Source of the DNA: Escherichia coli
GTDB lineage: Bacteria > Pseudomonadota > Gammaproteobacteria > Enterobacterales > Enterobacteriaceae
NCBI RefSeq assembly: GCF_003334405.1
Contig: NZ_QOWM01000013.1
Reading direction: 5' to 3' (one strand)
DNA: 64,000 nucleotides
Shown here: piece after piece, positions 9,001 through 12,000 of the stretch
How the letters are laid out: every line of letters starts with the position of its first letter
Numbering within the stretch: the stretch's first letter is position 1
Made by a program: the position numbers

Positions 9001-12000
9001 CATCCAGGCGGTACTGGCGCGTCGTCCGACTCGTCCGGCTGATTTCGATGCCCGTATGAAAGCGGTATCGCATTTCCGTACCCTGGATGCAGCTGCTGCA
9101 CTGGCGGCGGCGAACAAACGTGTATCTAACATTCTGGCGAAATCTGACGAAGTGCTGAGCGACCGCGTGAATGCCTCTACCCTGAAAGAGCCGGAAGAAA
9201 TTAAACTGGCGATGCAGGTTGTGGTGCTACGTGACAAGCTGGAGCCGTACTTTACGGAAGGTCGTTACCAGGATGCGCTGGTCGAACTGGCTGAGCTGCG
9301 TGAACCGGTTGATGCTTTCTTCGATAAAGTGATGGTCATGGTTGATGACAAAGAATTGCGTATCAACCGTCTGACCATGCTGGAGAAACTGCGCGAACTG
9401 TTCCTGCGCGTTGCGGATATTTCGCTGTTGCAATAATAACGCCGTTATTAAATAGCCTGCCATCTGGCAGGCTTTTTTTATCGCTAAATAATACAGCAAC
9501 CTTTAATAATCTTCTGCTGAATAAAGATTATCTCATATATTAATTTTATGAGATTTTTTTAGGATTATATCAAGGAGAAGAAACAAACTTATTAAGCTAG
9601 AATAGCCACGGGTGCTTGAGACTGTTTGTCTCAGGTATTCACCGAAAGGCAGACAGAGAAAAGCCCCACCTGACTATAAATCAAAGTTTGTACTGACCCC
9701 AAAAAGTTGGACAGTTAAACACGAGGCATATAGGTCTGATTCCGATATTCAATTGGAGTCAGACCTTTTAATTTCAGGCTAATTCTTCTGCTGTTGTAGT
9801 ATTCAATATATTCCGTAACAGCATCCTTCAGTTCGCTTATATTACTGAACTCATCAAGATAAAAACACTCCGACTTTAAGGTTCCAAAGAAACACTCCAC
9901 CACAGCATTATCCAGACAATTGCCTTTTCTGGACATGCTTTGTTTAATACCATGTTCTTTAAGGATATTTTGATATCTTCTCATACGATACTGCCATCCC
10001 TGGTCAGAGTGCAGAACAGGATGCTCGTGAGGATTAAGCTTTTTGAATGCCTGATCGAGCATATTCTCAACCATGTTCATCACTGGTCTTTCCGAAAGGC
10101 TGTAAGAAATAACTTCGTTGTTGAAGAGATCTATTACTGGAGACAAATACAGCTTGCGCCCATTGACTGCAAATTCAGTAACATCGGTAACCCACTTCTC
10201 GTTTGGCCGCGTAGCCTTGAAATCTCTTTGGAGAACATTAGGGGCGGTTTGCCCTACCTCTCCTCTGTAAGAGCGGTATCGCTTGACCTTAATCGCTGCT
10301 TTAAGTGAGAGGGTTCCCATCAGGCGCTGAACAGCTTTATGGTTAATCTGTTTCCCTTCTCGATGAAGAGACAGCGTTACCCTACGGTATCCGTATCGGC
10401 CTCTATTCTCGTGATAAATCTCACTAATACGCTTTTTAACGTCCGCATACTTGTCAGGCTTGCTGAGAGCCTTTAGATGATAATAAAACGTACTGCGCGG
10501 TATCTCCGCAGCCCTGAGAAGCTCATCAAGAGGATAAAACTGCCTTAGCTCGTTGAGTACTTTCACTTTTTCGTGGGATGAGCTAAGGCTTTCAGCTTTT
10601 TTAGATACATAAGCCGCGTTTCAAGAAATCGAACTTGCCTTTCAAGATCCTCAATGCGTCGGTCTTTTGACAGCTCCAATGCTGATGCCGCTTTTTCTGG
10701 ATCAACTGATATTGCAATGTTTCTTTTGGTGCCAATCTTGAGCGCGCGTAAACCAGCTTCTCCGCGCTCTTCATAGACCTTCAGCCACCTGGCTACAGAA
10801 CCACTACCAGCAAGCATAAAGTGAGCAGCAGCCTGATTAAGGGACATGTGCTGCTCGATCACAGCTTTCACGACCTTAATACGCAACTCTGGATCAGCAC
10901 TAACGCCTTTAGGTTTGGGAATTAAACCTTTTTCTCCATGTTTTTCATAGAGGGCAACCCATGTCCTGACCTGGGTTCGGGGGACACCAAAACGTGCCGA
11001 GATGATCCTGTAACCATCATCAGTTGTGAAGTAGTGATTCACGACTTCAAGGCGCTTTTCAAAAGGGTATTTTGGCTTTGACATATTAGGGGCTATTCCA
11101 TTTCATCGTCCAACAAAATGGGTGCAGTACATACTCGTTGGAAATCAACACAGGAGGCTGGGAATGCCGCAGAAATATAGATTACTTTCTTTAATAGTGA
11201 TTTGTTTCACGCTTTTATTTTTCACCTGGATGATAAGAGATTCACTGTGTGAATTGCATATTAAACAGGAGAGTTATGAGCTGGCGGCGTTTTTAGCCTG
11301 CAAATTGAAAGAGTAAGAGTCTTCGGCGGGAAATTATTCCCGCCTTACTTACGGCGTTGCGCATTCTCATTGCACCCAAATTTATTCTTCACAAAAATAA
11401 TAATAGATTTTATTACGCGATCGATTATTTATTTCCTGAAAACAAATAAAAAAATCCCCGCCAAATGGCAGGGATCTTAGATTCTGTGCTTTTAAGCAGA
11501 GATTACAGGCTGGTTACGTTACCAGCTGCCGGGCCTTTAGCGCCGCTTTCGATGGTGAAGGACACTTTCTGACCTTCGTCCAGAGATTTGTAACCATCGT
11601 TCTGGATAGCAGAGAAGTGTACGAACACATCTTTAGAGCCATCGTCAGGAGTGATGAAGCCGAAGCCTTTGTCAGCGTTGAACCATTTTACGATACCAGT
11701 CATTTTACCGGACATAGTGTATTACCTTTAATAATTAAGTGTGCCTTTCGGCGATATGGCGTGCTTTACAGATTTTGAAGCGTTAAAGGAATGTGCACTA
11801 CGAGGGGTATCAACGATAACTCTTGAAGGGACTTGCCTTACTACACTGCTTTAATGGTCTGTACGTCAAACCGTTGATGTGCATTAAGCCACGCATTGGC
11901 GGGTGATGCAACAATTATTTTTCATATTTATGATTAATCGGTTGGAAAACGGTCCTGTCATCAGGACCGTAAACAGCAATAAAGTGGATAAAAGTCTATT

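Follow-up and report, generated by a model that had tools for sequence, protein, structure and literature searches.

IS150 in the hokA/sokA toxin-antitoxin locus of Escherichia coli: sequence evidence for a leader deletion and a possible insertion hotspot

Results

The DNA analysed here is a stretch of 64,000 nucleotides from E. coli (assembly GCF_003334405.1, contig NZ_QOWM01000013.1), in the following called the window, and its positions 9500-11599 are identical to K-12 MG1655 by sequence comparison. A complete IS150 of 1443 bp occupies 9689-11131 on the minus strand, with its IRR end at 9689 and its IRL end at 11131, as judged from the terminal repeats and from the MG1655 record, where the same element is listed as 'insertion sequence:IS150' (3720633-3722075). 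The terminal inverted repeats, TGTACTGACCCCAAAAAGTTGGACA and TGTACTGCACCCATTTTGTTGGACG, are imperfect; IS150 repeats begin with TGTACTG. Two genes on the minus strand overlap by 4 nt, and identical copies elsewhere are annotated with a 'programmed frameshift': insJ (orfA, 173 aa, 10563-11084; ORF call and MG1655 annotation) and insK (orfB, the catalytic part of the transposase, 283 aa, 9715-10566; MG1655 annotation), the latter matching transpos_IS3, the NCBIfam model of IS3-family transposases, at 350 bits (cut-off 160 bits). With a length of ~1.44 kb, TGTACTG repeats and two overlapping ORFs for an IS3-type DDE transposase, the element is a member of the IS3 family. K-12 holds a single copy of IS150, which is the one in the window (PMC5009759, Table 1).

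The toxin ORF of hokA (50 codons, plus strand) extends intact over 11164-11316 and is the same as in uninterrupted alleles. It was identified by ORF call and by a match of 129.7 bits to the NCBIfam HokA equivalog NF007290 (cut-off 89 bits), which places its product among the small hydrophobic toxins of the Hok/Gef family. Its Shine-Dalgarno sequence AGGAGG (11152-11157, plus strand) lies in the gap of 32 bp (11132-11163) that separates the end of IS150 from the hokA ATG. An ORF starting at GTG 11122, inside the end of IS150, runs in frame into hokA, and this frame contains no stop after 11035. Beyond the toxin ORF, two 3' elements are present on the plus strand: a hairpin in the hokA 3' UTR, CGGCGGGAAATTATTCCCGCC (11324-11344, by folding and sequence), and the 'fbi' element, CTCATTGCACCC (11366-11377), the pairing partner of the 5' 'tac' element in the uninterrupted mRNA. 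Folding of the uninterrupted 367-nt mRNA (z = -8.6) predicts that its first six nucleotides pair with GCACCC close to the 3' end. Both partners occur in the window, tac (GGGTGCTTGAG) at 9610-9620 on the plus strand, within the leader remnant; they lie on opposite sides of IS150 and 1.7 kb apart, and would not share a native transcript.

On the glyS side of the element, the match to the Rfam hok leader model RF01794 starts at 9610, is credible for model positions 1 to ~83, and loses its register at 9687/9688. The match reaches 70 bits, its remainder being IS150 sequence, and the leader is not contiguous, whereas the intact allele L001 matches the model over its full length (positions 1-157, 119 bits). 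The 5' remnant of the leader (78 nt, 9610-9687, plus strand) is identical to L001:774-851. The presumed -10 box of the hokA promoter, TAGAAT (9598-9603, plus strand), lies 7 nt 5' of the leader start and is separated from hokA by IS150. Owing to its weak -35, this promoter was not called by the consensus promoter scan. On the minus strand, the sokA' pseudogene (9653-9687; b4614, 3722077-3722111 in MG1655) retains the 3' 35 nt of the antisense gene, corresponding to the 3' arm and the U-tract of the terminator hairpin. An orphan T at 9688, between sokA' and IS150, belongs to neither feature in the MG1655 annotation; the intact alleles and variant L003 have a G at this position.

On the hokA side, the mokA' pseudogene remnant (b4647, 3720448-3720632 in MG1655) runs in frame over 11132-11316 on the plus strand. 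Intact mokA has 70 codons (L001:863-1075); the remnant lacks the first 28 nt, and thereby its own ATG, as well as most of the ribosome-binding site. Three of the four Shine-Dalgarno bases are gone, and of GAGG only the first G lies outside the deletion described below, at the position that is a T at 9688. A -35 box of the sokA promoter, TTGATT (11143-11148, minus strand), appears to have survived on the hokA side of IS150, whereas the -10 box (TAACCT) is within the deleted segment; what is left of sokA is its 3' 35 nt and this -35-like hexamer. The curated 5' end of SokC, 9 nt inside mokC, was the reference for placing both this box and the 5' end of SokA, and SokA and SokC are each predicted to fold into a 5' tail and one terminator hairpin. 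Both the hokA and the sokA promoter were placed by homology; the consensus scans missed them even in the intact allele.

These observations bear on a previous reading of the window made from the sequence alone. The sequence-only reading had placed a complete 1443-bp IS150 at 9689-11131, 32 bp 5' of the hokA start codon at 11164, and all of these coordinates hold. It described a type I toxin-antitoxin locus disrupted by the element, with the toxin ORF detached from its promoter and leader, which is supported by the break of the leader model at 9687/9688. It further considered it implausible that a promoter, a mok start and a sok gene could all be located in 11132-11163, and nothing resembling any of the three was found there. 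The position of IS150 between glyS and hokA was correctly given, but the element does not lie in a neutral spacer, as it sits inside the hokA transcription unit, which RF01794 traces from 9610. Similarly, the claim that promoter, mok start and sok are separated from the toxin ORF stands for the promoter, the 78-nt leader and the 35 nt from the 3' end of sokA, whereas the mokA start and the 5' parts of sokA are not separated but deleted.

The trinucleotides flanking IS150, GTT (9686-9688) and TAC (11132-11134), form no direct repeat, and neither a 3-bp nor a 4-bp target duplication is present. The lack of a 3-bp duplication had been noticed before, together with the suggestion to compare the locus with an uninterrupted hokA; this comparison locates the insertion point, confirms that there is no duplication, and reveals in addition a loss of 38 bp of leader. 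Strain HH97 is 100% identical on both flanks, including the one on the hokA side, and carries 38 extra bp between them, AGGCCCCTCTATGCATAGACACCATAAGGTTAGCCTCT. This segment holds the mokA ATG and three of the four mokA Shine-Dalgarno bases, and, by homology to SokC, the -10 box and start site of sokA together with the 5' ~19-20 nt of SokA. Since its bases correspond to conserved positions in hokC and in the Rfam model, it is unlikely to be an insertion in the other alleles. From the comparison of alleles, the hokA event is an IS150 insertion accompanied by a 38-bp deletion, and not a simple insertion; it may have taken place as a one-step insertion-deletion or as an insertion followed by a deletion, as the sequence is compatible with either. 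The missing target duplication is due to the deletion, and not to decay of the repeat. A simple insertion, with a 3-bp duplication since decayed by point mutation and nothing else lost, is hardly credible. Although IS150 normally makes 3-bp duplications, as at loci L004, L006 and L009, and GTT and TAC might in principle derive from a repeat that decayed, the 38 bp found between the flanks in intact alleles are absent from the window, which refutes this explanation. Moreover, the same two junctions recur in many genomes (see below), and no copy in the K-12 orientation without the deletion was found among the hokA loci compared.

In ~48% of 5426 complete E. coli genomes, IS150 is present in the hokA leader, as a result of at least two independent events. 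The K-12-type junctions are found in ~1643-1667 genomes, or ~30% of the complete genomes. Copies in plus orientation occur on divergent hokA alleles (94-100% identity) and may go back to separate events. The first three junction counts (2828, 1643 and 1132) add up to more than 5426, with junctions of hokC and of plasmid hok cross-matching the hokA query; a hokA-specific query returned 976, and the sum was then still ~0.4% above 5426, probably reflecting duplicated loci. For the other chromosomal loci, the fractions of complete genomes with IS150 are ~12% (hokB), ~10% (hokE) and at least 3% (hokC).

Seven other hok loci carry IS150 at the homologous position and in the homologous orientation, namely a hokA with the element in the orientation opposite to that of the window, hokC, hokE, a plasmid hok locus, and four loci in three other genera. 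The target duplications at the hok-leader copies other than that of the window are AAG (hokA, plus orientation), ACC (hokC), ACCC (hokE), CCA (plasmid hok) and GCC. The site in hokE was predicted by homology and then found as a 121/121 match. Among the matches listed, the four loci from Erwinia, Superficieibacter and Lelliottia have their Hok ORF 74-81 nt downstream of the IS end. The homology-predicted site in hokB proved to be wrong: there, the common natural insertion is in the 5' tac hairpin, ~69 nt upstream of the predicted position, at a site that shares the YGRGRC motif. The hotspot is therefore not one universal position, as hokB differs. A literature search for IS150 together with hokB gave no match.

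Among the matches listed from other species, 37% of the flanks have a T-tract beginning at a distance of 9-16 nt from the end of the IS, against 6% of controls; these are a convenience sample dominated by relatives from Streptococcus and Clostridia, with four reconstructed empty sites. The relatives of IS150 with the same terminal repeat may show a general homing to intrinsic terminators. The plus-strand hairpin GAGGC...GCCTC beside the hotspot is no more stable than shuffled sequence (z = -0.6), so that the structural part of the hotspot idea comes down to the Sok terminator hairpin. A comparison by eye of the hok target with the IS150 terminal repeats, which would indicate an 'IR-targeted' insertion, showed nothing convincing.

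Discussion

There is little doubt that the window carries hokA/sokA, a type I toxin-antitoxin locus of E. coli K-12 that IS150 has killed. The disruption of hokA by IS150 in K-12 is a long known and annotated feature of this laboratory strain. In the curated MG1655 annotation, mokA and sokA are pseudogenes that both directly abut IS150, and passages in two papers (PMC11551753, PMC12214031) state, with reference to Pedersen & Gerdes 1999, that an insertion element disrupts or inactivates sokA/hokA of K-12; the statement in the sequence-only reading that such inactivation is described for K-12 is thereby borne out. For K-12 itself the present findings carry little weight, the inactivation of this chromosomal toxin-antitoxin locus by an insertion sequence being a textbook case. 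As the only copy in K-12, this IS150 is nevertheless where every IS150 transposition in K-12 derivatives originates. What this analysis adds to the MG1655 annotation are the population frequencies and the further hok loci with IS150, at the homologous position or, in hokB, at a different site. The 38-bp deletion is not mentioned in the later literature examined here.

In the intact locus, a weak promoter would give rise to an mRNA of ~365 nt with its 5' end paired to its 3' end, HokA synthesis would require translation of the upstream in-frame mokA (70 codons), and the SokA antisense RNA of ~55-60 nt would cover the ribosome-binding site and start codon of mokA. In the K-12 lineage, IS150 inserted into the part of the leader that forms the 5' arm of the SokA terminator hairpin, immediately before the ribosome-binding site of mokA, and 38 bp were lost with this insertion or later, which fits the 'IS150-del' type. 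As a result, the promoter and 78 nt of leader are stranded beside glyS (9598-9687), together with 35 nt from the 3' end of sokA. mokA has lost its start and most of its Shine-Dalgarno, and sokA its -10 box, start site and 5' recognition tail. What is left beside IS150 is an intact but promoterless hokA ORF with its own Shine-Dalgarno and 3' elements. Judging from what is known of the family, hokA is presumably silent in both transcription and translation, with no antitoxin made. In plasmid R1, the toxicity of hok is lost on a single mutation of the promoter or of the mok start codon (PMC9841398).

Alternatively, IS150 may have rewired hokA, with read-out from the element or a hybrid promoter driving the toxin ORF, loss of Sok control and, as a result, an IS-dependent toxin. 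The disruption has left the hokA ORF and its Shine-Dalgarno perfectly conserved, the frame of GTG 11122 continues from the IS150 end into hokA, and HokA cloned from MG1655 DNA is toxic on overexpression (bioRxiv 10.1101/2025.08.07.668861). This frame and the strong hokA Shine-Dalgarno imply that transcription reading out of IS150 could in principle yield toxin. However, I consider this alternative very unlikely. The consensus promoter scan found no sigma-70-like site facing hokA in the last 230 bp of IS150, and such scans, which missed the promoters of the intact allele, are usable as evidence against a strong outward promoter. In addition, K-12 survives with presumably no SokA, which argues against meaningful HokA production, and hok translation depends in this family on translation of mok (PMC9841398), the start of which is absent here. 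A silent hokA is thus the preferred reading. With a toxin ORF that is intact and toxic when expressed, and presumably no cognate antitoxin in K-12, a promoter engineered upstream of it could be lethal.

The recurrence of IS150 at a homologous position in hok leaders probably points to a target-site hotspot, as has partly been reported before. A wider claim would be that this hotspot is specific in sequence, structure and orientation, with YGRGRC coming after the target duplication, at the 5' foot of a hairpin and inside the Sok terminator stem, and that one IS family repeatedly and independently disables all five chromosomal E. coli paralogs, plasmid hok and other enterobacterial hok loci; on this claim I find the evidence evenly balanced. 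Selection could also explain the recurrence, if the loss of hok/sok loci is beneficial and any knock-out is favoured. Insertions of IS150 by hokC, hokE and mokB indeed rose in adapting laboratory populations, which was interpreted as loss of a redundant function (PMC5419217), and large fractions of natural genomes carry IS150 in hok loci. However, if inactivation were what is selected, many positions in the promoter, the leader and the ORF would serve, whereas hokA, hokC, hokE, plasmid hok and the four loci of other genera are hit at one shared nucleotide position and in one orientation. Insertion at the trg/mokB hotspot recurred 10 times in mutation-accumulation lines, which are under minimal selection (PMC5289635). 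Selection in place of a hotspot is therefore an unlikely explanation. If the hotspot is real, hok leaders would be natural traps for IS150, which would explain the frequent dead hok loci in E. coli, and they would offer a defined and compact target for studying site choice by IS3-family transposases.

The hok/sok system of plasmid R1 is a type I toxin-antitoxin system that mediates post-segregational killing. The uninterrupted hokA allele shares with it a Hok-family toxin, an overlapping upstream mok frame, the 5'-3' closure of the mRNA, a Sok RNA made up of a 5' tail and a terminator hairpin over the mok start, and a full-length match to RF01794. In contrast to R1 hok/sok, the copy in the window has a detached promoter and is without mok start, sok promoter and sok 5' end. 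According to earlier work reviewed in bioRxiv 10.1101/2025.08.07.668861, not even the intact chromosomal hokA of E. coli C mediated post-segregational killing.

With respect to the insertion itself, hokA/sokA::IS150 of K-12 (MG1655; Pedersen & Gerdes 1999, Mol Microbiol 32:1090) is the same object, without any sequence difference from the window. The event resembles the 'IS150-del' type, in which IS150 insertions come with deletions of at least 14 bp and no target duplication (14 of 68 events): the window lacks 38 bp relative to intact alleles, within the reported range of 14 bp to 49 kb, and has the same deletion-IS-deletion structure without duplication (bioRxiv 10.1101/2024.06.02.596822). 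In contrast to those events, which were observed as they happened during the long-term evolution experiment, the hokA event is ancient, being found in ~30% of complete genomes, and may have arisen in two steps. The trg/mokB and hokC/nhaA hotspots from E. coli B evolution and mutation accumulation, and sokE::IS150, present in XL1-Blue and >400 natural isolates (PMC11551753), involve the same IS in leaders of the hok family. The hits in hokE and hokC occupy the position homologous to the hokA site; all these insertions are clean, in plus orientation and with duplications of 3-4 bp, whereas the copy in the window is inverted and accompanied by a deletion.

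Results

The IS150 copy of the window lies at 9689-11131 on the minus strand and is 1443 bp long, with imperfect terminal inverted repeats that start with TGTACTG at both ends and two overlapping open reading frames, insJ (10563-11084, minus) and insK (9715-10566, minus), which matches the NCBIfam model of IS3-family transposases with 350 bits. The hokA open reading frame (11164-11316, plus, 50 codons) exceeds the 89-bit cut-off of the HokA equivalog model with a score of 129.7 bits, and begins 32 bp to the right of the element, as the sequence-only reading had it. Positions 9500-11599 are identical to E. 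coli K-12 MG1655, in which the element is annotated as IS150. The proposed placement of the element between glyS and hokA holds as far as gene order goes, but IS150 actually lies inside the hokA transcription unit. The Rfam model RF01794, named 'sok', describes the sense-orientation hok mRNA leader with its 3' end at the hok ATG; it matches the plus strand from 9610 on the glyS side, aligns well up to about model position 83 (9687), and then degenerates within the element. As this match stops at the IS, the 5' part of the unit must be on the glyS side. On its other side hokA is adjoined by a cspA thermoregulator (RF01766, 398-501 bits; 11448-11800, minus), also present in the retrieved loci L001, L002, L003, L004 and L007; automatic annotation in several RefSeq genomes names this cspA gene cspE, and the hokC reading frame mokC.

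In order to find an intact allele, I joined the two flanks of the element and queried them against 5426 complete E. coli genomes. In strain HH97 (L001) both flanks are 100% identical, yet they span 619 bp instead of 581 bp. Direct comparison gives the intact sequence across the site as ...ATCAAAGTG AGGCCCCTCTATGCATAGACACCATAAGGTTAGCCTCT TACTCG..., of which the middle 38 bp (L001:853-890) are missing from the window. The insertion point is thereby located, and the apparent lack of a 3-bp target duplication (flanks GTT and TAC) is real, with a 38-bp deletion instead. The base before the 38-bp segment is G in the intact allele and T at window 9688. This lone T, between the sokA remnant and IS150, is a G also in ECCNB12-2 (L003), where the junction is otherwise identical; either a point mutation or the capture of one base during insertion may account for it.

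Against RF01794 the intact allele gives a full-length match of 119 bits. Its mokA starts with the ATG at L001:863, preceded by GAGG, and opens a 70-codon frame that runs in frame into hokA; in Ecol_AZ161 (L004:3020-3035) there is one A fewer between the hokA Shine-Dalgarno sequence and ATG (GGGATG vs GGGAATG), which would shift mokA out of the hokA frame. The curated SokC RNA of MG1655 has its 5' end 9 nt inside mokC and is antisense through the mokC ribosome-binding site, and alignment transfer places the predicted SokA start opposite mokA codon 3, with a predicted minus-strand promoter of TAACCT (-10) and TTGATT (-35). SokA and SokC have similar folds, in which a short 5' tail leads into a single long terminator hairpin that ends in GGGGCUUUUCUCU (z = -3.8 and -4.6, respectively). 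Folding of the intact mRNA brings together GGGUGC at the 5' end and GCACCC near the 3' end (z = -8.6); these partners are on opposite sides of the IS in the window.

Because the 38 bp held the start region of mokA and the 5' region of SokA, their loss took the mokA start codon, three of the four Shine-Dalgarno bases, and the predicted sokA -10 box, start site and first 19-20 nt or so. To the left of the IS there remain the presumed hokA promoter -10 box TAGAAT (9598-9603), a 78-nt stretch of hokA leader (9610-9687) and, on the minus strand, the last 35 nt of sokA at its 3' end (9653-9687). The right side keeps the predicted sokA -35 box (11143-11148), the hokA Shine-Dalgarno sequence (11152-11157), the hokA reading frame, a hairpin in the 3' UTR (11324-11344) and, beyond it, the fbi element (11366-11377). 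Just before fbi ends ysaE, a small protein gene annotated in MG1655 (11293-11364, minus), which overlaps the final 24 nt of hokA and this hairpin in antisense. The suggestion that a mobile element disrupts this type I toxin-antitoxin locus is thus borne out, as the leader is broken at the IS. Promoter and leader are indeed separated from the toxin gene, but the mokA start and the sokA 5' end are deleted rather than displaced.

Expression of hokA by read-out from IS150 is formally possible, since an in-frame reading frame starts with GTG at 11122 inside the IS end and continues into hokA; a consensus scan detected no promoter facing hokA in that end. In hok of plasmid R1, single mutations of the promoter or the mok start codon cause loss of function, and blocked mok translation blocks hok translation (PMC9841398). 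As the K-12 hokA is without both, its toxin should be silent, and judging from the sequence sokA would not be producible in K-12 either. Transcripts arriving from the orphaned hokA promoter could be terminated at a plus-strand hairpin with a 15-bp stem and a T-rich run (9732-9766), just inside the IS150 end, where the opposite strand encodes the 3' end of insK.

Among the 5426 genomes, the hokA leader is uninterrupted in 2828 (52%), has the K-12-type junctions in about 1650 (30%), and carries IS150 in the opposite (plus) orientation without deletion in 976 (18%). The plus-orientation copies are inserted 1-2 bp away from the left junction of the K-12 type and have a 3-bp AAG duplication (5 bp in one variant). 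A 454-bp contig of 'Methylobacillus sp. MM3' (L110, NZ_LXTQ01000012.1) has the K-12-type leader/IS150 junction except for a single mismatch, and is most likely a contaminant of that assembly from an E. coli laboratory strain.

IS150 occupies the homologous position in other hok leaders (L004:1516-2958, L006:2562-4004, L009:818-2260 and L135:398-1840; right ends in L100, L101, L127 and L130). With the duplication in brackets, the junctions read [AAG]TGAGGC in plus-orientation hokA, [ACC]CGAGGC in hokC, [CCA]CGAGGC in a plasmid hok adjoining psiA, and [ACCC]TGGGGC in hokE, where the site was predicted from homology and then confirmed (121/121 match, 555 genomes). Among the matches listed in a cross-species scan, the same junction occurs in two loci of [Erwinia] mediterraneensis and one each of Superficieibacter electus and Lelliottia nimipressuralis, each with a Hok-family reading frame 74-81 nt downstream. 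All these copies share the plus orientation and a 3-4-bp duplication, after which comes YGRGRC in the region of the mok ribosome-binding site. The exception is hokB, where the common IS150 site is in the tac hairpin at the 5' end, some 69 nt farther upstream ([GCC]TGAGAC, 633 genomes, among them the K-12 derivative HMS174 with trg-hokB, L134:398-1840), although YGRGRC still follows the duplication. In MG1655 an IS186 copy begins 18-20 bp past the stop codons of hokC and hokE (L008, L132), and in natural isolates these genes can be flanked on both sides, by IS150 upstream and downstream by an element of the IS186/IS421 type (L006, L010, L135).

Such recurrence might reflect selection alone. However, position and orientation are fixed across the hok loci, which argues for a target preference of IS150 beyond selection. 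Among the matches listed, related elements in Streptococcus, Clostridia, Alistipes and Leptotrichia also have the exact right-end sequence (L012-L131). There 37% of 116 unique flanks have a T-tract beginning 9-16 nt from the IS end, against 6% of 2278 control positions from the same loci (Fisher p ~5e-20), a hairpin with T-tail is found in 9% against 1.3%, and intrinsic terminators make up three of the four empty sites that could be reconstructed; T-tract enrichment and empty sites together suggest that these relatives insert at terminators. The hok hotspot maps within the Sok terminator hairpin, to its 5' arm (SokA nt 20-24), and the inverted window copy has the polarity towards the T-tract seen in Streptococcus. 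As the commoner plus-orientation copies differ in this respect, a structural explanation of the hotspot is only tentative.

Comparison with known events

That IS150 disrupts hokA/sokA in K-12 is already known, as the initial reading stated: MG1655 sokA is described as disrupted by IS150 (PMC11551753, citing Pedersen & Gerdes 1999), hokA figures in a list of hok genes that insertion elements have inactivated (PMC12214031), and the MG1655 annotation has mokA (3720448-3720632) and sokA (3722077-3722111) as pseudogenes adjoining IS150, leaving the odd T unassigned. The original observation is confirmed and its interpretation supported, with an important refinement: the insertion comes with a loss of 38 bp, and with them of the mok start, the sok promoter and the sok 5' end. 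As an extension of this, the hotspot pattern is modest and was partly reported earlier: evolving E. coli B populations repeatedly acquire IS150 at hokC/nhaA, insA-7/hokE and trg/mokB (PMC5419217), and trg/mokB, with 10 insertions in mutation-accumulation lines, was called a hotspot (PMC5289635).

The left K-12-type junction is found in 1643 genomes and the right one in 1667; these near-equal counts imply that essentially all copies in this orientation carry the same deletion and go back to one old event. Elsewhere in hok leaders IS150 is bounded by clean target duplications, whereas the window has IS150 with an adjoining deletion and none. Insertion and deletion may possibly have arisen in two steps. 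The arrangement matches, in its sequence configuration, the 'IS150-del' events of the long-term evolution experiment, in which 14 of the 68 IS150 movements were accompanied by deletions next to the IS, 14 bp to 49 kb in size, and none of these by a duplication (bioRxiv 10.1101/2024.06.02.596822).
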